Positions 2,512 to 50,556 are shown, counted from the stretch's first letter. The stretch is 64,000 bases of DNA from an uncultured Methanolobus sp. (GCA_963675495.1 OY776215.1:1312001-1376000); one strand, 5' to 3'. The notes: generated by a model from the letters alone, not told the origin. Program-made: numbers and translations.

Positions 2512-3180
2512 ATGACAAGAATTGGAGTAATCACCAGGGGAAAGTACGGGAACCGTCTGATAGATACCATTAGCTCAAAAACTGAAATGGAAGTAGTTCA
2601 TACTTTTGTACCGCAGATGCTGCCTGACTTCATCGATGAGCCAGACGAATTCCTGGAAGGACTCAATATAGACAGCTCCGTGTTCGATTCGAACATTGTT
2701 ATCACCTATTCACTTCATCCTGACCTCACCGTAGCAATAGCACATAAGGCAGGAAAAGCCGGTGTTAAAGCCCTGATAGTACCAGGGGGAGCATCAAAGG
2801 CACCTGTAGTGGAGCTTGAAGGTATAGCAAAACAATATGGCATGCTCATTGAAGTTGAGGATATATGCTGCACCCTTCAGGAAAAACCGGAAACAAAAGA
2901 ACTTTGTTCGCACCTGTCAAGTCCTGTTCTTGATATTAATGTCGATAAAGGTATAATAGAATCCGTAGAAGTATTATGTGGGGCACCATGTGGAAGCACG
3001 TGGCACATGGCAAAGGAACTTGTGGGAATGAAGGTCGAAGAAGCACCTGCCAGAGCCGGACTGCTCATACAACAATACCCATGCAGGGCCGTCAGGGGAA
3101 ATATGGGCGGCATCCATGAATCCGGGGAGATTCATAAAAAGGCCGTCGAAGATGCGATCAGGAAGAAAAAAGAAAACTGA
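2512..3180 (+). CDS. DUF166-family protein
   Basis: GKYGNR, YSLHPDL, ICC, APCGSTW and YPCRA...IH.SG.IH motifs. Confidence 0.75.
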   Translation: MTRIGVITRGKYGNRLIDTISSKTEMEVVHTFVPQMLPDFIDEPDEFLEGLNIDSSVFDSNIVITYSLHPDLTVAIAHKAGKAGVKALIVPGGASKAPVVELEGIAKQYGMLIEVEDICCTLQEKPETKELCSHLSSPVLDINVDKGIIESVEVLCGAPCGSTWHMAKELVGMKVEEAPARAGLLIQQYPCRAVRGNMGGIHESGEIHKKAVEDAIRKKKEN

Positions 3181-3198
3181 GCATATAAATGGGGAAAT

Positions 3199-4929
3199 AT
3201 GGACAATATCCAGATAGCTGAAAGGTTCAACCAGATGGCGAAACTTCTGGAATTCAAGGGAGAGAATCCGTTCAAGACCAGAGCATATACAACTGCCGCA
3301 AGGACCATAAAAAGACTTGATGAAGAACTGGCATCATTATACAAGAATGGAAAAATTGACACCGTACCAGGAGTCGGTGAAGCACTTAAAGGCAAAATAG
3401 TAGAAATGCTGGAAACGGGTTCGTTCGATGCCTATGAGCGAACAGTGAAAGAAGTGCCAAATGGAATCATGGACATTATGAATATTCCCGGTATCGGTCC
3501 GAAAATGGCAAGGCAGTTCTACGAAAAACTTGGAATCACATCAATTGATGAGCTAAGCAAGGCTGCCAGGGAACACAGGATACGGAGACTTCCAAGGATG
3601 GGGGAAAAACAGGAAGATAAGATCCTCAGGTCCATCGTCCGGCTTCAACAGGACAAAGACCATGGGAGACACCAAATTGCGGCCGTCACAGACATCGCAA
3701 ATGAAATTACGGAGGAGTTGACCTTAAGCCCGTATATCGAAAAGGTAGCCGTAGCAGGTAGTTTGCGAAGAAAGAAAGATACTGTGGGAGATATTGACCT
3801 TATAGCAGTTTCAGATTATCCGGAAAAGACACTTCGAGCCTTTGTAAATCTGAGTAAGGTCGAAGAGGTACTGGAATCAGGAACTTCTAAAGGTGCTGTC
3901 ATGTATCCCGGGAACCTGCGTGTGGACCTGAGAGTTGTAGATAAAAATTCTTTTGGCTCAATGTTGCAGCACTTCACGGGCTCAAAGGAACATAATATCC
4001 ACCTTCGGAAAATCGCACTCTCTAAAGGATACAGCCTGAACGAGTATGGAATTACAAACGAGATCAGTGGCAAGCTCGCACCTTGCAGCAACGAAAAAGA
4101 CCTATATGATTTTCTGGGGCTGGAATATATAGCCCCTGAACTCAGGGAGAATCTGGGAGAGATAGAAGCAAGCCTCATAGGAAAGCTCCCCCACCTGATA
4201 GAAAGAAAAAACATTAAAGGTGATCTTCACGTCCATTCCAACTGGAGTGACGGTGTAAACACAATAGAAGAACTTGCAAATGCGGCCATTCAGCTAGGAT
4301 ATGAGTACATTGCAATCACAGACCACTCACATTCCACAGGTATTGCTAACGGGTTATCTGAAAAAAAATTGCTTGAACATATCGAAGAGATAGAGGACCT
4401 CAATAAGAGATTCGAAGACATCAGGATACTTTCAGGCACAGAATGTGACATTAAAGCAGACGGAAAGCTGGATTATAGTAATGACATCCTTGAAAAACTG
4501 GACATTGTAATTGTGGCTGTACACGCAGGACTGGAACAGGACATGAGCAAGATGACCAGAAGGATAGTTACAGCCCTTGAGAATGAACATGTGGACATAC
4601 TTGCCCATCCCACCGGCCGAAAATTTGGAAAACGACCTGCATATGATGTTGATATGGATAAAATATTAACAGTGGCAAAAGACAACGACAAAGTGCTTGA
4701 GCTAAATTCATCGCCCTGGAGACTTGACCTGAATGACACCAATGCAAGAAAAGCAAAGGATTATGGTGTTAAGATTGCCATCAACACGGACACACATGCA
4801 ATTGACCATTTTAACAATATATCATTTGGAATAGATGTCGCAAGAAGGGGTTGGCTAGAACCGGAAGATGTTATCAATACCATGAATATAAAGCAACTAT
4901 GTTCCAGACTTGGTATTCCAAAAAAATGA
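3199..4929 (+). CDS. polX: family X DNA polymerase with C-terminal PHP domain
   Basis: GENPFK.RAY, HhH motifs, GSLRR, GDID and RVD catalytic triad, HFTGS. PHP motifs DLHVHS, TDHS, LAHPT, NTDTH. Confidence 0.93.
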   Translation: MDNIQIAERFNQMAKLLEFKGENPFKTRAYTTAARTIKRLDEELASLYKNGKIDTVPGVGEALKGKIVEMLETGSFDAYERTVKEVPNGIMDIMNIPGIGPKMARQFYEKLGITSIDELSKAAREHRIRRLPRMGEKQEDKILRSIVRLQQDKDHGRHQIAAVTDIANEITEELTLSPYIEKVAVAGSLRRKKDTVGDIDLIAVSDYPEKTLRAFVNLSKVEEVLESGTSKGAVMYPGNLRVDLRVVDKNSFGSMLQHFTGSKEHNIHLRKIALSKGYSLNEYGITNEISGKLAPCSNEKDLYDFLGLEYIAPELRENLGEIEASLIGKLPHLIERKNIKGDLHVHSNWSDGVNTIEELANAAIQLGYEYIAITDHSHSTGIANGLSEKKLLEHIEEIEDLNKRFEDIRILSGTECDIKADGKLDYSNDILEKLDIVIVAVHAGLEQDMSKMTRRIVTALENEHVDILAHPTGRKFGKRPAYDVDMDKILTVAKDNDKVLELNSSPWRLDLNDTNARKAKDYGVKIAINTDTHAIDHFNNISFGIDVARRGWLEPEDVINTMNIKQLCSRLGIPKK

Positions 4930-40863: not shown

Positions 40864-41034
40864 TTCCCTAACTACATTTTTGCATTACTTTTTTTAGTAC
40901 TTACATTCTCATCTGGTCTCGACAGATAATATTTATATTGAATGTACGCCTAAACTTTGCCAAGATCATTTCATATTTTTATAGCTTTATCAGCAACTTC
41001 CGATAAACAGCAGAATATCGAACGTATAGGAAAT

Positions 41035-43788
41035 ATGAGCGAAAATCAAACTCCAGAGCAGGAAGCCAGAGACAAGATAGACATAAAACTGAATGATTCT
41101 GGCTGGGTAGTACAAAAAAGAGAGAAGATAGACTGGAGTGCTTCCCACGGAATTGCGGTGCGTGAATACTGGACTGATGTGGGTCCGGCTGATTATGTCC
41201 TTTTTGTTAACAAGATACCTGTTGGGATTATTGAAGCAAAAAAGAAGGAAGAGGGACATAAACTGACAGTTGTGGAGGAGCAATCCGCAGAATATGCTTC
41301 CAGCAAGTTAAAATATCTGGATAATGGCCAGCTTCCTTTTGTTTATGAGAGTAATGGAGAACTCACAAGGTTCACGGATTATCGTGACCCTAAACCAAGA
41401 TCAAAGTCTGTGTTCTCATTTCATCGGCCTGAAACATTCAGGGACTGGCTCAAAAAAGAGCCTTTAAGAGAAAGGCTTCTTTTGATACCGGAATTACGAG
41501 TTGAAAATTTGCGTGATTGCCAGATAATGGCAATTAATAATCTTGAAACTTCATTTAAGGAGAATCGTCCTAAAGCTTTGATCCAGATGGCCACTGGTTC
41601 CGGAAAAACCTATACTGCTATTACTTTCATTTACCGCTTGCTAAAATACGCAGATGCCAACAAGATACTGTTCCTTGTTGATACCAGAAACCTTGGTGAG
41701 CAGGCGGAGCAGGAATTCATGGCTTACATGCCAAATGATGATAACCGCAAATTCACTGAGTTGTACAATGTTCAGCGGCTGCGTTCCAATTATATATCTT
41801 CGGACAGCCAGGTATGCATTTCCACTATCCAACGTCTGTATTCCATTCTTAAGGATGAGGAGTTGGATGAAGAGTCAGAAACTGAGAATCCTGCTGAGAA
41901 GAAATGGCAGCCAAAGGAGCCACTTCCTGTTGTATATAATGAGAAGATCCCAATTGAAGAGTTTGATTTTGTGGTTGTTGATGAGTGTCACCGTTCTATC
42001 TACAACCTGTGGCAGCAGGTAATTGATTATTTCGATTCGTTCCTGATAGGTCTGACAGCGACCCCGGATAAACGTACTTTTGGTTTTTTTGATGAGAATG
42101 TGGTAAGTGAGTACGGCCATGAGGAAGCGGTGGCAGATGGTGTGAATGTTGGTTATGATGTGTACACTATTGAGACTGAGATCACAAAAGAAGGAGCAAA
42201 GATCAACGCAAAGGAGTTTGTGGACAAGAGGGAGAAACTTACCCGCAGGAAGCGCTGGGAACAACTCGATGAAGAGTACACATATACTGGCAAGAAGCTT
42301 GACAGGGATGTTGTTAATCCAAGCCAGATAAGAAATGTCATACGCACTTTCAGGGACAAACTGCCGGAGATATTCCCGGGAAGAGAAGAAGTTCCAAAGA
42401 CGCTGATCTTTGCCAAGACAGACAGCCATGCAGATGATATTATACAGACAGTACGGAAAGAGTTCGGAGAAGGTAACGCTTTTTGTAAAAAAGTCACCTA
42501 CAAAAATGAAGAAGACCCGAAGTCTGTGCTGTCACAGTTCCGTAATGATTACAATCCAAGAATTGCTGTGACAGTGGATATGATAGCTACCGGCACGGAT
42601 GTTAAGCCGCTGGAATGCCTGCTGTTTATGAGAGATGTGAAAAGCCGGAACTATTTTGAGCAGATGAAAGGACGTGGGACCAGAGTCATGGGTTATGATG
42701 ACCTGAAGAAAGTCACGCCTTCGGCAGTTTCGGCGAAGACTCATTTTGTGGTTGTGGACGCTGTGGGTGTCACTAAGTCCATGAAGACTGACAGCAGACC
42801 ACTTGAGCGTAAGAAGGGGATCGCCTTGAAAGACCTGTTGGCAGCGGTTACTTTTGGCGCTCAGGATGAAGACCTTTACATTTCACTAGGGAACAGGCTG
42901 TCGAGGTTGAACAAGCAGATCACTGATGATGAAAGGGCTACTTTTGCTGAAAAAGCCGGTGGAAAAGAAATAAGCGGGGCAATCCGGGACTTGTTCAGAG
43001 CATATAATCCTGATATTATAGATGCCATGGCTTCCGGTATAAAACAGCAGCAACCCCAGATATCTCAAGAGAAAGCACAGAAACAGGCACAACAGGAATT
43101 AATAGATGTTGCGAGGTCAACATTTAACGGAAGGCTGAACGATTATATCGAGAATGTACGCAGGGTACACGAGCAGATCATTGATACAGTGAATACTGAT
43201 ACTGTTCTCAGGGCTGAGTGGGATAAGGAAGCTGTTGCAAAAGCTGATGAGCTGGTAAGCGACTTCAAAGTCTATCTGGAAGCTAACAAGGATGAGATCA
43301 CAGCATTGCGTATCTTCTACAACCAACCCTACCAGCGCAGGGATGTGACCTTCGCAATGATAAAAGAGCTGCTGGAAAAGCTGAAGATAGAAAAACCCCA
43401 CTTTGCACCTCTGAGAGTCTGGCAGGCATACGAGCAACTGGAGAAGGTCAACGGCAATTCTCCCAAAAGCGAGCTTACAGCTCTGGTCTCCCTTATCCGC
43501 AGGGTGACGGAGATAGACCCGGTTCTTACCGCCTATGACCAGACAGTGAACCGTAATTTCCAGGATTGGGTTTTCAGCAAACAGGCCGGAACCCTGAAGT
43601 TCAATGAAGACCAGATGAACTGGCTGCGCATGATAAAGGATTACGTGACCAACAGTTTCCATCTGGAAATAGATGACCTCGATTACACTCCCTTTGATGC
43701 AATGGGCGGTCGTGGAAAGATGTACCAGCTCTTTGGCGATGAGATGAACGTGATTATCGGCGAATTGAATGAGGCACTGGCGGCTTGA
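41035..43788 (+). CDS. hsdR: Type I restriction enzyme R subunit
   Basis: ADY...IIEAKK nuclease, MATGSGKT, DECH, LTATP, TG.D, QMKGRGTR, EcoEI-R-like C-terminus. ATG 41035. Confidence 0.95.
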   Translation: MSENQTPEQEARDKIDIKLNDSGWVVQKREKIDWSASHGIAVREYWTDVGPADYVLFVNKIPVGIIEAKKKEEGHKLTVVEEQSAEYASSKLKYLDNGQLPFVYESNGELTRFTDYRDPKPRSKSVFSFHRPETFRDWLKKEPLRERLLLIPELRVENLRDCQIMAINNLETSFKENRPKALIQMATGSGKTYTAITFIYRLLKYADANKILFLVDTRNLGEQAEQEFMAYMPNDDNRKFTELYNVQRLRSNYISSDSQVCISTIQRLYSILKDEELDEESETENPAEKKWQPKEPLPVVYNEKIPIEEFDFVVVDECHRSIYNLWQQVIDYFDSFLIGLTATPDKRTFGFFDENVVSEYGHEEAVADGVNVGYDVYTIETEITKEGAKINAKEFVDKREKLTRRKRWEQLDEEYTYTGKKLDRDVVNPSQIRNVIRTFRDKLPEIFPGREEVPKTLIFAKTDSHADDIIQTVRKEFGEGNAFCKKVTYKNEEDPKSVLSQFRNDYNPRIAVTVDMIATGTDVKPLECLLFMRDVKSRNYFEQMKGRGTRVMGYDDLKKVTPSAVSAKTHFVVVDAVGVTKSMKTDSRPLERKKGIALKDLLAAVTFGAQDEDLYISLGNRLSRLNKQITDDERATFAEKAGGKEISGAIRDLFRAYNPDIIDAMASGIKQQQPQISQEKAQKQAQQELIDVARSTFNGRLNDYIENVRRVHEQIIDTVNTDTVLRAEWDKEAVAKADELVSDFKVYLEANKDEITALRIFYNQPYQRRDVTFAMIKELLEKLKIEKPHFAPLRVWQAYEQLEKVNGNSPKSELTALVSLIRRVTEIDPVLTAYDQTVNRNFQDWVFSKQAGTLKFNEDQMNWLRMIKDYVTNSFHLEIDDLDYTPFDAMGGRGKMYQLFGDEMNVIIGELNEALAA

Positions 43789-45146
43789 TGATGGATGAGT
43801 GGATAGAGAGTATTGTTGCGGCTGGTGAGGGATACCATATTGAGTTCAAGGAGAGTCTTGATAAGTCGTTTGTTGAGGAGGTTTGCGCTTTTGCTAATTC
43901 CAATGGCGGAAAGGTATTTCTTGGCATTTCTGATAAGGGGATCATCAAAGGTGTTCAGACCGATAATAGTTTCAGATCAAGGGTGCAGGACTCCCTGAGA
44001 CAGTTGCAGCCACAGCTTGATGTTAAGATCGAAGTGCATGACAATTTTATTGTTGCTGATGTGCCGGAGGGGAGCGAGAAGCCTTATGCCTGTTCCAGAG
44101 GGTTCTTTCTTCGAAACGGGGCAAATTCCCAGAAACTGAACCGCAATGAGATCATCGCTTTTTTCCAGAAGGAAGGTCGCATCCGTTTTGAAGAACTGCG
44201 AAACGGGAAGGCAGATTTTGAGAATGACTTTGATGAGAGGGCATTTCGTAATTTCCTGAAACTTGCAGGCATTACTAATTCAATTGACAGGATGTCTTTG
44301 CTGCGGAATCTGGATTGCATTACTGATGATGGAAAACTAAATAATGCCGGAGTTCTGTTCTTTGCAAAGGATATTGATTTCCTGCTAAATCATGCTATTG
44401 TTGTCTGTGTCCTGTATAAAGGAACAAAAAAAGTGCATATCCTTGATAAGAAGGATTTCAAGGAAAATATTGTTGAGAACATCGACAATGCCATCCTTTT
44501 TGTTAAAAGACATACCAACGTGGAATACAGAATTGAGAAGATCCAACGGGAAGAGATCCCGGATATTCCCGATATAGCTCTAAGAGAAGCCATCATAAAT
44601 GCAGTATGCCACCGAGATTATTTTGACAGAGGTTCCAATGTGCTTATAGAGGTCTTTGACGACAGGGTTGAGATCTCAAACCCCGGTGGCCTGCCAAGCG
44701 GCCTTAAGCCCTCTGATTTCGGCAACCTGAGCGTTGCCCGCAATCCCCTTATTGCATCCCTGCTGCACAGGATAGACTATATTGAAAAGGTCGGCACCGG
44801 CATAAGCCGTATCAAGCAGGCTGTAGATGAGAACGAGAAGACTTCGGTTGAGTTTTCATACGATGGTCGTTTTTCCGTGATTTTCCGAAAACTTGACATA
44901 AGTTCGGAGATGGAGTTGGGAGAAAAGTTGGGTGACGGTTGGGAGAAAAATTCGGAGAAAAGTTCGGAGAAAATCCTTGAAGCAATTAAAGAAAATCCCA
45001 CTATTACCCGTGAAGAACTTAGTCAGATTGCAGACTTGTCTATACGGGGAGTGGAATGGAACCTTGCTAAATTGAAGGATGAAGGAAAAATCAAGCGTAT
45101 TGGATCGAGAAAAAGCGGGCATTGGGAAATAATAGATAAGTCCTAA
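43788..45146 (+). CDS. Schlafen/AlbA_2 + HATPase_c_4 (RecG-C-like) + wHTH protein X1
   Basis: EG..IEFKES, CAFANS.GG...LG..D.G, REAI.NAVCHRDY, I.NPGG, RNP.IA, E..GTG, C-terminal wHTH ending G.W. TGATG overlap with the hsdR stop. Confidence 0.88.
   Translation: MMDEWIESIVAAGEGYHIEFKESLDKSFVEEVCAFANSNGGKVFLGISDKGIIKGVQTDNSFRSRVQDSLRQLQPQLDVKIEVHDNFIVADVPEGSEKPYACSRGFFLRNGANSQKLNRNEIIAFFQKEGRIRFEELRNGKADFENDFDERAFRNFLKLAGITNSIDRMSLLRNLDCITDDGKLNNAGVLFFAKDIDFLLNHAIVVCVLYKGTKKVHILDKKDFKENIVENIDNAILFVKRHTNVEYRIEKIQREEIPDIPDIALREAIINAVCHRDYFDRGSNVLIEVFDDRVEISNPGGLPSGLKPSDFGNLSVARNPLIASLLHRIDYIEKVGTGISRIKQAVDENEKTSVEFSYDGRFSVIFRKLDISSEMELGEKLGDGWEKNSEKSSEKILEAIKENPTITREELSQIADLSIRGVEWNLAKLKDEGKIKRIGSRKSGHWEIIDKS
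44901..44972 (+). repeat. degenerate 12-bp tandem array inside X1 linker
   Basis: Six units near AGTT(C/G)GGAGAAA, with lengths 13,12,11,12,12,12. Confidence 0.75.
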
Positions 45147-45178
45147 AATAAATATATCAACGCTTGGTTTTAAGATTG

Positions 45179-45250
45179 CTGTGGTATAAACTGTGGTATA
45201 AACTGTGGTATAAACTGTGGTATAAACTGTGGTATAAACTGTGGAGAAAA
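45179..45250 (+). repeat. 12-bp tandem array, intergenic
   Basis: CTGTGGTATAAA x5 perfect (45179-45238) plus a degenerate sixth unit. Confidence 0.95.
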
Positions 45251-45310
45251 TCCAAAAATAAAAGACTTTTGCAACGAATAACACCAAATAAGTGTGAAAA
45301 TTTAAAATTA

Positions 45311-45346
45311 ATTAATGTAGAATTAAATGATGAATTGGCGGCTTAA
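45311..45346 (+). pseudogene. relic 3' end of a second hsdR allele
   Basis: Reads INVELNDELAA* versus the hsdR end IIGELNEALAA*; 27/36 nt identical to 43753-43788. Confidence 0.7.
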
Positions 45347-45348
45347 AA

Positions 45349-46833
45349 ATGGAATTACCCGATAGTTGGATTAAAGTCGTTTCAAGTGAAATATTAGATA
45401 TTAGAGATGGAACTCACGATACTCCAAAATATGTTGATGATGAAATATATCCTTTAGTAACATCCAAAAATCTAAAAAATGGAGATTTAGACTTAAAAAA
45501 TGTAAAATACATTTCTAAAGAAGATTTTTTACAAATTTCACTGAGATCAAAGGTTGATATTGGCGATATTCTATTTGCAATGATTGGCACTATTGGCAAT
45601 CCTGTCTTAGTAAAAGCCGAGCCAAAATATGCAATCAAAAATATTGGTTTATTTAAAAATCCTAAAAAATTAATCAGTTCTGAATTGTTTAAGTATTACC
45701 TAGATTCATTCACTTTTTATTCACAAATTGAAGAAAAACAGTTTTTAAAGGGAACTACACAAAAATTCATACCACTTGGGCATTTGAGGAAAATAGAAAT
45801 CCCGCTCCCACCACTCCCCGAACAACGCGCCATAGTCTCCAAGATCGAGCTGCTCTTCAGCGAACTTGACAACGGCATCGCCAATCTCAAACTGGCACAG
45901 GAGCAGCTCAAAGTTTACAGGCAGTCGGTGCTGAAGAAAGCGTTTGAAGGAGAGCTTACGAAGAAGTGGAGAGAAAAGCAGCAGGATTTGCATGGTGCTG
46001 ATGAGCTGCTGGTTGAGATTAGCAGGGAAAAAGAAGAAGCTGCCAAGGCTACCGGCAAAAAATTAAAAACTGTAAAACCCCTCAATGAGACTGAATTAAA
46101 AGATTTGTCAAGCCTGCCGACTGATTGGAGATGGACAAAAATTGAAGAACTCGGGGAAGTAACAGGTGGCCTGACAAAGAATTCAAAAAGAAATAAAATA
46201 TCTACAAAACTGCCTTACCTTAGAGTCGCTAATGTCTATTCCAATGAATTACGTTTAGATGACATCAAATTCATCGGTATTGAAGAACAAGAAATCCCGC
46301 GAGTAATATTAAAAGAAGGAGATCTTTTAGTCGTCGAAGGAAATGGAAGTTCTAGTCAAATCGGTAGAGTTGCCATCTGGAATGGAAAAATATCTCCATG
46401 CGTACATCAAAACCATCTCATAAAAGTTAGATTCCAAATTGTGGATATCGGCAAATTTATACTTTTTTGGCTAATTTCATTTGAAGGTAGAAAACAGATT
46501 ACTAGAGTTGCAAGCTCCACGTCAGGCCTTTACACATTAAATATTTCAAAAGTATCCTCTTTACCTATTCCAGTCCCACCTCTCCCCGAACAACAAGCCA
46601 TCATCAGCGAAATCGAAACACGCCTTTCAGTCTGCGATAAAGTAGAACAGGATATCGCGGAGAATCTGGAGAAAGCCGAGGCTCTTAGGCAGAGTATTTT
46701 GAAAAAGGCGTTTGAGGGGAAACTGCTCAATGAGAGGGAGTTGGAGGAAGTTAGGAAGGCGGATGACTGGGAGCCGGCTGAGGTTTTGTTGGAGAGGGTG
46801 AGGGCTGAGAGAGCAGAAAGTGGGAAGAGGTGA
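45349..46833 (+). CDS. hsdS: Type I R-M specificity subunit
   Basis: ELP.SW start, two TRDs, twice PP.LPEQ.AI...IE and RQS.LKKAFEG.L. Confidence 0.93.
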   Translation: MELPDSWIKVVSSEILDIRDGTHDTPKYVDDEIYPLVTSKNLKNGDLDLKNVKYISKEDFLQISLRSKVDIGDILFAMIGTIGNPVLVKAEPKYAIKNIGLFKNPKKLISSELFKYYLDSFTFYSQIEEKQFLKGTTQKFIPLGHLRKIEIPLPPLPEQRAIVSKIELLFSELDNGIANLKLAQEQLKVYRQSVLKKAFEGELTKKWREKQQDLHGADELLVEISREKEEAAKATGKKLKTVKPLNETELKDLSSLPTDWRWTKIEELGEVTGGLTKNSKRNKISTKLPYLRVANVYSNELRLDDIKFIGIEEQEIPRVILKEGDLLVVEGNGSSSQIGRVAIWNGKISPCVHQNHLIKVRFQIVDIGKFILFWLISFEGRKQITRVASSTSGLYTLNISKVSSLPIPVPPLPEQQAIISEIETRLSVCDKVEQDIAENLEKAEALRQSILKKAFEGKLLNERELEEVRKADDWEPAEVLLERVRAERAESGKR

Positions 46834-46840
46834 GGAAAAA

Positions 46841-48322
46841 ATGGGATTAGAAAGGTTGAAAAGACTACTCAAAGAGCAGGAAGGCATCCGTCTGGAATTT
46901 AAGGAAGCACGCACAGCCTTGCCGGGTAATTTATTCGAGACAATTTGTGCTATGCTCAATCGTGATGGTGGGGACATCATTCTTGGAGCAGATGACACTG
47001 GCAACATTACCGGGGTCGAGCATAACAAAATTGAGTCCATTGTGACCAATCTGGTCAACCTGTCAAACAATCCTCAAAAACTCAATCCACCATTCATACT
47101 ATTCCCACAAACCTATGAAATAGAGGGAAAATGGCTGATCCATATCCAAGTTCCTGCCAGCTCACAAGTGCATAAGACCGGCAGTACTGTATTCAATCGT
47201 AGCAATGATGGGGATTTTAAAGTCACACAGCCACAACAAATTGCAGAGATACACAACCGCAAAGCTGCCCATTACACTGAAGGAATAATTTATCCTGCAT
47301 TGCATTTTGAAGATTTCAAAGCTGACCTCTTCCCTAAAATTAAAAACCTCATCCGAAGCCACAACGACAACCACCCGTGGCTGGCACTGACAGATAAGCA
47401 AATGCTGGAAAAGGCAGGTCTTTGGAAGCGAGACCTTAAAACAGCACAGGAAGGTTACACTCTTGCAGCAGCTTTGCTACTTGGCAAAGATGAAGTTATC
47501 CAGCAAATACTTCCATACTTTAAAATTGATGCACTAGCCCGTGTGGAGGATATTTATCGTTACGATGATCGAGAATACATTCAAACAAACCTAATAGAAG
47601 CCTATGAACAACTAATGACATTCATCGGCAAACACTTACCCGATAAATTTTATATGCAAGGCGATCAGCGAGTAAGCCTTCGAAATAAAATATTCAGGGA
47701 AATAGTTGCAAATCTGATTGTCCACAGAGAGTATATGAATGCTTACCCATGCACATTTATAATCTATGCAGACAGGGTTGAAACCGAAAACGCAAACAAC
47801 CCACATGGAGAAGGACCGATCGATCCTGATAGGTTTGCCCCATTTCCTAAAAATCCAGCAATCGTAAAATTCTTCATGCAGCTTGGAAGAGTAGATGAAT
47901 TGGGTTCTGGTGTTTTAAACGTAAATCGATTTATCAAGGAATATGCAGATGGTGGCAGCCCACAGTTTATTGAAGAAGATGTATTCAAGACCATCATTCC
48001 TCTTGCTGAAGAGTCAATTGAGGGAGCAATTGAGGGAGCAATTGAGGGAGCAATTGAAGGAACAATTGAGGGAGCAACCCGACATGTGAAAGACAAACTC
48101 ACTATACTTTTGCAAGTGATTGCAGAAAATGAAGGTGAAAAAGTTCCTGACTATGCAGCCATAACCAAACTGTCGGTTAGCAGTGTTGAAAGATACATTA
48201 AGCAATTAAAGAATGCTGATCTGATAGATTTCAGAGGGAGATCAACATTGACCGGGGGTTATTACCTGACAGATGAAATGAAGAAAAAGTTAAAAGGAAA
48301 AACTCAGGGACAAAAAACATGA
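46841..48322 (+). CDS. Schlafen/AlbA_2 + HATPase_c_4 + wHTH protein X2
   Basis: EG.RLEFKEA, CAMLNRDGG.I.LG.DD.G, REIVANLIVHREY, PKNP.I, ELGSG, C-terminal wHTH ending GGYY. ATGA overlap with hsdM. Confidence 0.88.
   Translation: MGLERLKRLLKEQEGIRLEFKEARTALPGNLFETICAMLNRDGGDIILGADDTGNITGVEHNKIESIVTNLVNLSNNPQKLNPPFILFPQTYEIEGKWLIHIQVPASSQVHKTGSTVFNRSNDGDFKVTQPQQIAEIHNRKAAHYTEGIIYPALHFEDFKADLFPKIKNLIRSHNDNHPWLALTDKQMLEKAGLWKRDLKTAQEGYTLAAALLLGKDEVIQQILPYFKIDALARVEDIYRYDDREYIQTNLIEAYEQLMTFIGKHLPDKFYMQGDQRVSLRNKIFREIVANLIVHREYMNAYPCTFIIYADRVETENANNPHGEGPIDPDRFAPFPKNPAIVKFFMQLGRVDELGSGVLNVNRFIKEYADGGSPQFIEEDVFKTIIPLAEESIEGAIEGAIEGAIEGTIEGATRHVKDKLTILLQVIAENEGEKVPDYAAITKLSVSSVERYIKQLKNADLIDFRGRSTLTGGYYLTDEMKKKLKGKTQGQKT
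48015..48077 (+). repeat. 12-bp tandem array inside X2 linker
   Basis: CAATTGAGGGAG x5 (fourth unit CAATTGAAGGAA), encoding IEGA/IEGT. Confidence 0.92.
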
Positions 48323-49857
48323 CCGAGAACACATCATCCATCGTATCCAAAGTGTGGAGCTTTTGTAATGTACTGCGTGACGGAGGGGTGAGCTATGGAG
48401 ATTACCTTGAGCAGTTGACATTCCTCATATTCCTGAAAATGGCAGAGGAATACAGGAAGCCGCCGTATAGCAGGGATATTGACATCCCGCAGGAATATAC
48501 ATGGGATGTATTAAAGCAGAAGCGTGGCGCTGAGCTGGACATACATTACAGGAACCTATTGGATGAGCTTGCCAGAAAACCGGGGATGCTCGGACAGATA
48601 TTCCTCAAGGCGCAGAACAAGATAAGCGACCCTGCCATGCTGTACAAGGTCATTGATATGATCGACAAGGAAAGCTGGGTCATGATGGGCGTTGACACCA
48701 AGGGCGAAATATACGAAGGACTTTTGCAGAAGAACGCAGAGGACACAAAAAGCGGAGCTGGTCAGTACTTCACTCCCCGACCGCTCATCAAGATCATGGT
48801 TGAATGTCTGCGACCACAGCCCATGAAAACCATAGGCGACCCCTGCTGTGGTACTGGCGGGTTCTTCCTGGCTGCTTATGATTTTCTCACATCACGATCA
48901 AATGAGCAACTTGACCGGGAGCAGAGTAGGTTCTTGAAGAACGATACCTTTGGTGGCAACGAAATAGTAGCCGGAACCCGACGGCTGGCCCTCATGAACC
49001 TCTTCCTGCACAACATCGGAGAGATTGACGGACAGCCCATGATATCCAACTCCGATGCACTAATAGCCGATTCCGGTGAACGGTTCGATTACATCCTCAC
49101 CAATCCTCCTTTCGGTAAAAAGAGCAGCATGACCTTCACTAATGAAGAAGGTGGCCTGGAAAAAGAAGACCTCACCTACAATCGCCAGGACTTCTGGGTC
49201 ACTACCAGCAACAAACAGCTAAACTTCGTGCAGCACATCCACACCATTCTCAAAACCGGTGGTCAGGCAGCTGTGGTATTACCGGATAACGTCCTCTTTG
49301 AAGGAGGAGCCGGGGAAACTGTGCGCAAAAAGCTCATGGAAACTACCGAACTTCACACCATACTTCGTTTGCCAACCGGCATATTCTACGCCAACGGAGT
49401 GAAGGCTAACGTGTTATTCTTTGAAGCAAAACCCGCCTCTAAAAATCCATGGACAAAGGAAGTCTGGATATACGACTACCGCACCAACGTACATCACACA
49501 CTGAAAAAGAACCCCCTGAAATACTCAGACCTTGAGGAATTCATACGGTGTTACAATCCTGAAGACCGGCACAATCGCAGCGAAACATGGAATGAGGAGA
49601 ATTCCGATGGCCGATTCCGCAGGTTCAGTTATGAGGAAATAGTGGCAAGGGACAAAACCAACCTTGATATTTTCTGGCTCAAGGACAAGAGCCTTGCAGA
49701 CCTTGACAACCTTCCTGATCCTGACATACTTGCAAACGAGATAATAGAGAACATCGAAGCCTCACTTGAGAGTTTCAGGGAAGTAATGGACATTGTGAAT
49801 GGGAACGTAAGCAGTGATCTGGTATATTGCAAAGACATTCGTTCCAACACAAAATAA
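48319..49857 (+). CDS. hsdM: Type I R-M m6A methyltransferase subunit
   Basis: GAGQYFTPR, DPCCGTGG, NPPF, LRLPTGIFY. Confidence 0.95.
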   Translation: MTENTSSIVSKVWSFCNVLRDGGVSYGDYLEQLTFLIFLKMAEEYRKPPYSRDIDIPQEYTWDVLKQKRGAELDIHYRNLLDELARKPGMLGQIFLKAQNKISDPAMLYKVIDMIDKESWVMMGVDTKGEIYEGLLQKNAEDTKSGAGQYFTPRPLIKIMVECLRPQPMKTIGDPCCGTGGFFLAAYDFLTSRSNEQLDREQSRFLKNDTFGGNEIVAGTRRLALMNLFLHNIGEIDGQPMISNSDALIADSGERFDYILTNPPFGKKSSMTFTNEEGGLEKEDLTYNRQDFWVTTSNKQLNFVQHIHTILKTGGQAAVVLPDNVLFEGGAGETVRKKLMETTELHTILRLPTGIFYANGVKANVLFFEAKPASKNPWTKEVWIYDYRTNVHHTLKKNPLKYSDLEEFIRCYNPEDRHNRSETWNEENSDGRFRRFSYEEIVARDKTNLDIFWLKDKSLADLDNLPDPDILANEIIENIEASLESFREVMDIVNGNVSSDLVYCKDIRSNTK

Positions 49858-49899: not shown

Positions 49900-50556
49900 T
49901 TGAATCCGAAAAATAAAATGTTGATCGTTGATGATGAGCGAATCAACGTAGCACTCCTTACATCGTATCTTTCTGAGACTTACGACATAGTTTCAGTCTC
50001 AAATGGTGAGGAAGCACTTAAAATAGTGAAAACTTAAAATCCAGGCCTTGTACTGCTCGATATAGTTATGCTCGGAATGGACGGATTTGACGTATGCAAA
50101 ATAATCAAGCAGGACTATAAACTTGATTTTATACCTATAATAATGCTCACGGCTCTGACGTCCAGGGATGATCACCAGAAAGGAATTGAAGTTGGTGCGG
50201 ATGACTTCCTGAAAAAACCTGCTGACAAATTTGAACTGAATGAAAAGATCAGAGCCCTTCTGCGCATCAAAGAGCAGCATGATTCGCACCTCATCGACCG
50301 CAACAAAGCATACGAATATCTCGGTTATGTTGGAGTATTGATAGCTGTTCTTGACAAAGATCACAAACTCATCCATATTAACAAAAAAGGTGCTGATATT
50401 CTTGGCTATAAAAGAGAGAATATTATTAATAGAGATTGGCTGGACCTTTTTGTTGCGGAAACTTATGTAGAGCCTGTGAAAAGCAAATATGACAATCTTC
50501 TGAACAAAGGAAAATCCAATAGTAAGGATGCTGAGATGGCTGTGTTGAGGAGATAA
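49900..50556 (+). pseudogene. response-regulator receiver + PAS pseudogene
   Basis: Frame from TTG 49900 reads LIVDDE.IN...NGEEAL.IVKT*NPGLVLLDIVM..MDG, with an in-frame TAA at 50035-50037. It ends within the PAS domain. Confidence 0.8.

Follow-up and report, generated by a model that had tools for sequence, protein, structure and literature searches.

Three short tandem arrays with a unit of 12 bp, here called X1, X2, and X3, are found in and beside two Schlafen-type genes of a type I restriction-modification (R-M) operon in an uncultured Methanolobus sp. The DNA analysed, referred to as the window, is a stretch of 64,000 nucleotides (GCA_963675495.1 OY776215.1:1312001-1376000), and positions are counted from its first letter. 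The operon has the gene order hsdR - gene A - hsdS - gene B - hsdM, all on the + strand; X1 lies within gene A, X3 within gene B, and X2 between gene A and hsdS (Table 1). The best explanation, with a probability of about 0.7, is that the arrays form in-frame, hypervariable linkers where an exchangeable winged helix-turn-helix (wHTH) cassette begins, and that X2 is what remains of a cassette that has been lost.

According to this explanation, X1 and X3 would be in-frame minisatellites encoding a loosely constrained tether between a Schlafen-nuclease/GHKL-ATPase body and a C-terminal winged helix. Comparison shows that the array travels together with the wHTH as one cassette, which is also carried by Fic proteins and other bodies. 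Replication slippage or unequal crossing-over would alter the copy number, and recombination within or at the arrays would replace, stack, or delete cassettes. X2 would be the remnant of a TVEK/KTVV-type cassette after loss of the wHTH, persisting as a non-coding and length-variable array, and the two reading frames used in X1 would stem from the joining, long ago, of an LGEK-phase array to one in SSEK phase, a junction tolerated because the linker peptide is weakly constrained.

Three congeners, G008, G007, and G002 (loci L015, L016, and L017), have genes A and B in the operon. Gene A of the window is 80-97% identical to that of G002 up to the array and 45-63% identical beyond it, and the G002 gene continues after four SSEK units with a wHTH of a different type from that of the window. 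Gene B is about 88% identical to that of G008 up to the array and about 35% identical from the array onwards, where G008 carries four TAQV units followed by a PF21247-type wHTH. Judged from these sequences, the congeners carry different array and wHTH cassettes on gene bodies that are 85-90% identical. Since the identity breaks at the array and different cassettes are found on like bodies, the array belongs to the cassette. The window and G007 have a common wHTH type and different units, and mosaics of LGEK, SSEK, and TVEK units are found in the window, in G008, in G007, and in a Methanococcoides locus (L020).

The cassette is also found on other proteins. Arrays of the xQVT type followed by a PF21247 wHTH occur on AlbA_2/HATPase_c_4 proteins, on Fic proteins (PF02661), and on PF13271 proteins. 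A survey of the PF21247 cassette gave a repeat in 62 of 120 hits, with period 4 in 49, 8 in 10, 12 in two, and 11 in one, so that 61 of the 62 periods are multiples of four residues. One locus, L019, has two modules in a single open reading frame (ORF). The metagenome locus L107 (about 2640-3300) has a frameshift in the gene body immediately 5' of the array, and an IEGA array, a wHTH, and a double stop lie behind. Beyond the double stop the frame continues with a short ATAQ array and an intact PF21247-type wHTH, and hsdM is next, which makes two tandem cassettes.

The arrays themselves were located with Tandem Repeats Finder (TRF), which places X1 at 44914-44973 (period 12, 5.1 copies, 77% matches, score 71), X2 at 45179-45244 (5.5 copies, 100% matches, score 132), and X3 at 48015-48077 (5.2 copies, 92% matches, score 112). 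All three period-12 arrays of the original prediction, which had been made from the sequence of the window, were thereby recovered. Genome-wide, 182 TRF rows reach a score of at least 50, and 13 of them have period 12. Only five arrays of period 12 in the 2,874,008-base genome reach five copies or more, three of them in one 3.2-kb stretch, and the clustering of X1, X2, and X3 is far above chance. Inside hsdS no such 12-bp array was detected by TRF, only three short low-score repeats with periods 7, 9, and 10. It had been claimed that each array stands just before a wHTH. This holds for X1 and X3, which end where their wHTH starts; X2 is intergenic, lying in a gap of 202 bases between the gene A stop and the hsdS ATG, and is followed by only a three-codon stub. 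Read in the frame of related coding arrays, the end of X2 and its stub give TVEK-IQK-stop, a sequence similar to that with which helix 1 begins in homologs. X1 and X3 are head-to-tail repeats in an open frame, with a unit that is a multiple of three, as in-frame minisatellites are, and X2 is non-coding. With a unit of 12 bp throughout, the three arrays lack the unit length that is not a multiple of three which characterizes on/off phase variation.

Structure prediction with AlphaFold2 (AF2) gave a model of gene A with a mean predicted local distance difference test score (pLDDT) of 81. Over X1 (residues 371-389) the chain is predicted as coil with a pLDDT of 34-38, and helix 1 of the wHTH begins inside the last units. 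Over X3 a helix is predicted at residues 394-408, at low confidence (pLDDT 39-56). Four public sequencing runs were compared in the form of Logan contigs. Those from the organism's own runs break at X2 and X3, and two metagenome runs with small word shares yielded short and partly dissimilar pieces. In one run, X8, the contig depth summed over 44642-45583 (X1, the gene A wHTH, X2, and the hsdS 5' end) exceeds that of the gene A body about 5-10 times; the contigs are short and very uneven in depth. At most this suggests possible separate or strong transcription of the stretch, contigs giving neither RNA levels nor ends.

Similar arrays are widespread among the homologs. When the 120 best homologs of each gene were surveyed at the protein level, a tandem peptide repeat was found 55-95 residues from the C-terminus, just before the wHTH, in 74 of those of gene A and 76 of those of gene B. 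Period 4 is the most common (31 and 43 homologs of genes A and B, respectively), followed by 8 (22 and 19) and 11 (20 and 5); periods 14, 7, and 12 were also seen, and periods 3, 5, 6, 9, and 10 are absent among these best 240 homologs. A DNA survey comprised 160 loci, the 80 best from each of two sets of 592 and 418 confirmed matches, and 127 of the 160 had a complete C-terminus. An array ending 35-115 amino acids before the stop is present in 121 of the 127, and its smallest period is 12 bp in 109 of the 121. The units are diverse, with SSEK, LGEK, TVEK, TTQE, and TSEK in family A and IEGA, EGLN, DGVN, and DTVN in family B. Most units have a small residue at a fixed position, and many have Pro or Gly at every fourth residue; on account of these last units an alpha-helical ruler was rejected as a general cause of the 12-bp period. 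By this survey the array is a hallmark of the whole family. Two gene A homologs, P0018 (392 amino acids) and P0019 (397 amino acids), end within or just after the array and are truncated forms without the wHTH, and one of them reads the array in the third frame, as RRKV repeats.

The number of units varies between close relatives. Nine of 19 locus pairs that match over 400 nt of upstream flank with an identity of 95% or more differ in copy number by one unit or more. L102, L103, and L143, whose flanks are 100% identical, have 6.2, 3.2, and 5.2 copies, and X3 itself has 5.2 copies in the window and 6.0 in G007. These comparisons indicate that copy number shifts much faster than point substitutions accumulate. 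Differences between units and the consensus of their own array were counted in 95 arrays and amount to 214 single-base changes, 52 synonymous and 162 non-synonymous. The synonymous share is 24.3%, compared with 23.8% expected from all non-stop changes (p = 0.87), and there is therefore no sign of constraint either on the peptide or on synonymous sites; the synonymous-site constraint that had been proposed as a check is not found, and the unit differences look neutral. As an alternative to its main proposal, the original prediction had mentioned that the arrays might be modules for slippage or recombination, by which the linker length is tuned or HTH tips are swapped, and it is this alternative that the comparisons of congeners and homologs favour.

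The two reading frames of X1 were confirmed both by unit lengths and by translation. Counted from 44901 the units are 13, 12, 12, 11, 12, and 12 nucleotides long, and units 2 and 3 (AGTTGGGAGAAA and AGTTGGGTGACG) are therefore shifted by one base and read (E)LGEK-LGD, with units 1, 4, 5, and 6 reading SSEM, (G)WEK, NSEK, and SSEK. X1 thus consists of an LGEK-phase sub-array (44914-44937) joined to an SSEK-phase sub-array (44938-44972). As DNA the SSEK and LGEK units are identical in 10 of 12 positions and are read one base apart, and each of them is also found as a pure array in homologs. The junction from LGE to SEK is present in G008 and in Methanosarcina loci as well, and it is therefore an old junction inherited in the lineage. 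The further claim that the DNA repeat is kept independently of the peptide does not apply generally: when arrays were paired whose units differ by at most two mismatches, 494 of the 498 pairs shared the frame, and the four exceptions are all SSEK versus LGEK. On this comparison the frame switch in X1 is evidence of a tolerant linker peptide and not of DNA conserved for its own sake. An idea that the repeat serves as a frame-tolerant adaptor was dropped, as most family B units contain TGA in one frame.

X2 consists of CTGTGGTATAAA repeated five times without a mismatch (45179-45238), followed by a single variant, CTGTGGAGAAAA (45239-45250). The unit CTGTGGTATAAA is found directly 3' of gene A in the window and in the three congeners, in 5.5, 3.1, about 5, and 1 copies, the single copy being that of G002. 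The arrays had been described as mutually unrelated, and X3 does belong to a different unit family. The units of X2, on the other hand, match coding arrays: the last one is identical to the unit of the TVEK array coded in gene A of G007, and the main one differs in a single position from the unit of a coding KTVV array in L080; with this mismatch a TAA appears in the KTVV frame. The similarity to L080 was reached by two of 500 shuffled units. The best reading of X2 is therefore that of a remnant left by a cassette that has disappeared.

Other loci have similar orphan arrays. An array starting 0-60 nt after the stop is present in 18 of 126 loci, three of the 18 being near-identical to one another. 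In control windows of 66 nt, arrays were found in 1-2 of 109-125 loci for four of the five windows and in 6 of 123 for the fifth (126-192 nt after the stop). Seven of the 11 orphans with period 12 match a coding unit of another locus with at most two mismatches. Intermediate stages of decay are seen in Methanosarcina homologs, which have orphan LGEK arrays after the stop, a pseudo-cassette of LGEK repeats and wHTH interrupted by an internal stop, and a single ORF that holds two modules. In four divergent bacterial metagenome loci (L106, L135, L138, and L151), short arrays of non-coding 12-bp units, CTGCACGATAAC and TGCGGGATAACC, are found between the Schlafen-type gene and hsdM; units of the CTGCACGATAAC type match none of the sampled coding array units.

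Several observations weigh against linkers and relics as the whole explanation. The 12-bp period is left unexplained by it, the Pro and Gly units do not fit a simple alpha-helical ruler, and other tandem repeats in the genome favour periods of 15, 18, and 21, not 12. The copy numbers were taken from assemblies, many of them built from short reads and prone to misjudge repeats, and the sampled genomes and loci are related and not independent samples. The type of unit goes strongly with the type of wHTH, as a binding model would also predict; where two loci have similar wHTHs, 181 pairs share the unit and nine do not, and where the wHTHs are dissimilar, 66 share it and 1974 do not. Four of the 11 period-12 orphan arrays match no sampled coding unit. 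Moreover, a wHTH-like segment is left in only two of 127 downstream regions, one of them with an internal stop, and most of the proposed cassette losses have therefore left no other trace. The same count led to the rejection of a standing reservoir of silent cassettes. Finally, the X2 unit is identical in four genomes despite diverged flanks, and X2 is perfectly homogeneous in the window, which could result from constraint rather than from a neutral relic.

A less probable reading, which still deserves some weight, is that the 12-bp arrays are working recombination arms of a small mobile cassette, consisting of array and winged-helix sensor, that moves among Schlafen-ATPase, Fic, and other bodies. 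Arrays after the stop, such as X2, would in that case be 3' arms or landing pads. If this is true, the repeats drive the diversification of defence sensors and do not merely mark a tolerant linker. In another, rather improbable reading, sensor switching would be programmed: the arrays would be the recombination arms of a mobile cassette, post-stop arrays would be a 3' arm or a landing pad and not debris, and tails would be swapped at a useful rate. The breaks of identity at the arrays, the occurrence of the same cassette type on unrelated bodies, and the excess of post-stop arrays over four of the five control windows would all be expected from such a system, as would the second cassette directly behind the first in L107 and the two modules in the ORF of L019. 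In Helicobacter pylori hsdS, repeats flanking a domain have likewise been proposed to mediate domain movement (PMC3077401). The scarcity of second wHTH-like segments downstream, mentioned above, speaks against switching, however. In family B the orphan units and the in-gene units of one locus are unrelated, and there is thus no homology for exchange; nor does ORF and Pfam annotation of the operon reveal a recombinase gene.

It is slightly less probable again that the peptide repeat itself is functional, as a structural repeat of four residues, for instance a semi-rigid spacer or a small-xxx-small helix-packing stripe, that sets the distance or pairing between ATPase and wHTH, the period of 12 being selected at the protein level. 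The restricted set of peptide periods, the small residue at a fixed position, and the shared frame of nearly all pairs with near-identical units agree with this, as does the helix predicted over the gene B array. In H. pylori hsdS, central 12-bp repeats set the spacing of two DNA-recognition domains (PMC3077401). Selection on the peptide would not, on the other hand, account for the lack of a synonymous excess between units, for the use of the X1 DNA in two frames, or for the period of 12 retained in non-coding orphan arrays. Units with Pro at every fourth residue cannot be alpha-helical, and the AF2 models have low confidence over the arrays, that of gene A being predicted as coil.

We consider it quite unlikely that X2 has been co-opted as a cis element, either as an upstream or TATA-like element or in a 3' untranslated region, for the next gene, which is hsdS in the window and the PDC-M11A-like gene described below in the congeners. 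The unit is identical at the same position in the four genomes and the sequence after the array differs, which would fit such a role. Each unit also contains TATAAA, which we take to resemble an archaeal TATA box. G002, however, has only the one copy, the congeners have a separate and better conserved A/T-rich box nearer to the next start codon, and no Rfam match was found over 44700-48400 at E <= 1.

The least credible alternative, and one that gained no support, is the proposal put forward originally, that the arrays are iteron-like binding sites for the adjacent wHTH, giving autoregulation or tethering. Unit and wHTH do co-vary across homologs, the arrays abut the wHTH-coding segment in the 121 of 127 loci, and the X2 unit is kept in four genomes; but the covariation, although it is present as anticipated, cannot decide the matter because it would equally arise if the cassette were inherited as a whole and because the loci are related, and there are exceptions in both directions (the nine and the 66 pairs). 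The congeners also join similar recognition helices to different units, one wHTH type having different units in the window and G007, and one unit to different wHTHs, the common SSEK unit being followed by different wHTHs in the window and G002. Synonymous sites appear unconstrained, the differences between units appear neutral, and the copy number ranges from 1 to more than 7 among close relatives. Matches to the units outside the locus with at most one mismatch number 24, 17, and 13, compared with 15.5, 21.3, and 11.0 expected, which is no excess, and no array unit is found in the upstream region of the operon.

The genome is a single contig of 2,874,008 bases with 40.5% G+C. Among named homologs, the one closest to gene A is that of a Methanolobus species, and the organism is a Methanolobus-like archaeon. 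The locus is flanked by genes for NrpR and an ammonium transporter and by nifH. The three hsd genes are found together on one strand, each with a Pfam match, and neighbouring genes overlap or abut; the coordinates are given in Table 1. Start and stop regions overlap at 43785-43788 (hsdR and gene A), 46820-46833 (hsdS and gene B), and 48319-48322 (gene B and hsdM), and because of these overlaps the genes fit a single co-translated operon. The order hsdR-hsdS-hsdM is also present in four congeners. One of them, G001, has a bare hsdR-hsdS-hsdM operon without genes A and B. The other three, G008, G007, and G002, have two extra ORFs between gene A and hsdS, a segment of about 1.6 kb that is missing from the window at 45147-45348. 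The first encodes a PIN-like protein of about 495 amino acids, matching the PADLOC candidate defence family PDC-M11A (E 1.9e-148), and the second is ASCH-like and runs into hsdS. The thought that hsdS of the window uses the start region of the missing gene was dropped, as the gap after X2 aligns too poorly with the congeners to place the ends of the segment. Right after the R-M island, the ORF at 50068-50556 covers only the second half of a receiver domain of response regulators (profile positions 52-111 of 111) at its start and continues with a PAS domain; it may be truncated or its start may be mis-set.

Table 1. Genes, wHTH segments, and 12-bp arrays of the R-M operon, in positions of the window.
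Feature	Position	Strand	Basis or remark
hsdR, type I restriction subunit	40957..43788	+	Pfam HSDR_N, ResIII, Helicase_C, EcoEI_R_C; 3' end overlaps gene A start
Gene A, Schlafen(AlbA_2)-GHKL ATPase-wHTH protein	43785..45146	+	453-amino-acid ORF (recorded protein 451 amino acids)
X1, in-frame 12-bp array, gene A linker	44901..44972	+	TRF, translation
Gene A C-terminal wHTH (cassette type 1)	44973..45143	+	HTH_24; AF2: three helices and two-strand wing
X2, intergenic orphan array	45179..45250	+	33 nt 3' of gene A stop; ends about 100 nt 5' of hsdS ATG
hsdS, specificity subunit	45349..46833	+	Pfam Methylase_S, two stretches
Gene B, second Schlafen(AlbA_2)-ATPase-wHTH protein	46820..48322	+	Overlaps hsdS end and hsdM start
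X3, in-frame 12-bp array (IEGA x5), gene B linker	48015..48077	+	TRF, translation
Gene B C-terminal wHTH	48078..48319	+	AF2 helices 414-429, 435-442, 446-458; strands 462-465, 473-476; helix 478-489
hsdM, methyltransferase subunit	48319..49857	+	Pfam N6_Mtase 8.9e-68, HsdM_N

The proteins encoded by genes A and B are distantly related, with about 22% identity. Both score above the cut-off of 25.3 bits for the AlbA_2/Schlafen domain (PF04326). Gene A matches SLFN_AlbA_2 (7.1e-20), HATPase_c_4 (1.2e-21), and HTH_24 (1.6e-08, residues 394-437), and gene B matches SLFN_AlbA_2 (1e-14), its wHTH matches being weak and below threshold. The GHKL-type ATPase region PF13749 (HATPase_c_4), with a cut-off of 26 bits, scores 76.9 in gene A and 22.4 to 24.9, below the cut-off, in gene B; several homologs of gene B carry PF13749 according to precomputed domain lists, and the two genes are the only PF13749 matches in the genome. 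The motif E-x4-E-x-K is present as EGYHIEFK in gene A and EGIRLEFK in gene B. Its residues E13, E18, and K20 are invariant in the gene A alignment (A1), and E14, E19, and K21 are nearly invariant in A2. The C-terminus of gene B is predicted by AF2 to have wHTH topology, with three helices and a two-strand wing. A comparison of the gene A wHTH sequence with solved structures gave nothing below E = 0.1. By architecture, both genes encode defence-type proteins of the Schlafen-ATPase-HTH kind.

Several known systems resemble these arrays. Plasmid iterons are non-coding origin elements of roughly 17-22 bp that are bound by a Rep winged-helix initiator. Like them, the arrays are direct repeats near a winged-helix gene with a spacing of about one helical turn. 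X1 and X3, however, are coding and have a period of 12, their neighbours are of R-M and Schlafen type, and there is no Rep gene or origin feature at the locus. Bacterial coding minisatellites, also called variable-number tandem repeats (VNTRs), and simple-sequence contingency loci are head-to-tail repeats whose copy number differs between near-identical alleles. X1 and X3 are similarly head-to-tail and in frame, and the copy number differs between near-identical loci, as in the nine of 19 pairs, and between congeners. In contrast to contingency loci, the 12-bp unit keeps the frame and alters length instead of an on/off state, and the two-frame stretch of X1 comes from one 13-nt and one 11-nt unit and not from a change in copy number.

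Among prokaryotic Schlafen proteins, the combination of Schlafen domain, ATPase, and HTH is one of the most frequent. The architecture has been described as the pSlfn 'HisKinase-HTH' type (Nat Microbiol 2026, PMC13056530) or as a 'Schlatpase' supradomain with a C-terminal HTH (bioRxiv 10.64898/2026.05.29.728809). E-x4-E-x-K is there named as a catalytic motif (PMC13056530). The C-terminal sensor modules are described as exchangeable, and Schlatpase modules as moving between R-M, pAgo, and NACHT contexts (PMC13056530; bioRxiv 10.64898/2026.05.29.728809). Genes A and B share with these proteins AlbA_2, the E-x4-E-x-K motif, the PF13749 region (in gene B below the cut-off), the short C-terminal HTH, and the defence-gene neighbours. 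Their repeat linker, its length variation, the orphan arrays, and the turnover of HTH cassettes are, in contrast, not mentioned in the passages of these descriptions that deal with repeats, linkers, or the HTH. Titles, abstract openings, and searched passages of the literature contained no repeat linker in Schlafen-ATPase-HTH proteins. The comparisons show that the tail is joined through a hypervariable 12-bp repeat and that repeat and tail behave as an exchangeable cassette common to Fic proteins, the loss of which probably leaves recognisable orphan arrays. The arrays would then be a simple sequence marker of where a cassette begins and ends, and earlier exchanges of the tail could be read from them. 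For annotation, this would explain short perfect repeats in the gaps of R-M operons that might otherwise be mistaken for regulatory sites.

In the literature searched, the closest described analogue is the 12-bp central repeat of H. pylori hsdS together with repeat-mediated domain movement (DOMO). The central repeats there vary from 2 to 6 copies (PLoS One 2011, PMC3077401). They lie inside hsdS and set the spacer of the recognition sequence, whereas the arrays of the window are found in genes A and B and in the gap between gene A and hsdS. The flanking repeats of DOMO are unique sequences of 19-53 bp and not tandem arrays (PMC3077401). The likeness consists in the in-frame 12-bp units between two DNA-recognition modules of a protein associated with R-M, and in the repeat-flanked domains that are replaced, lost, and duplicated.

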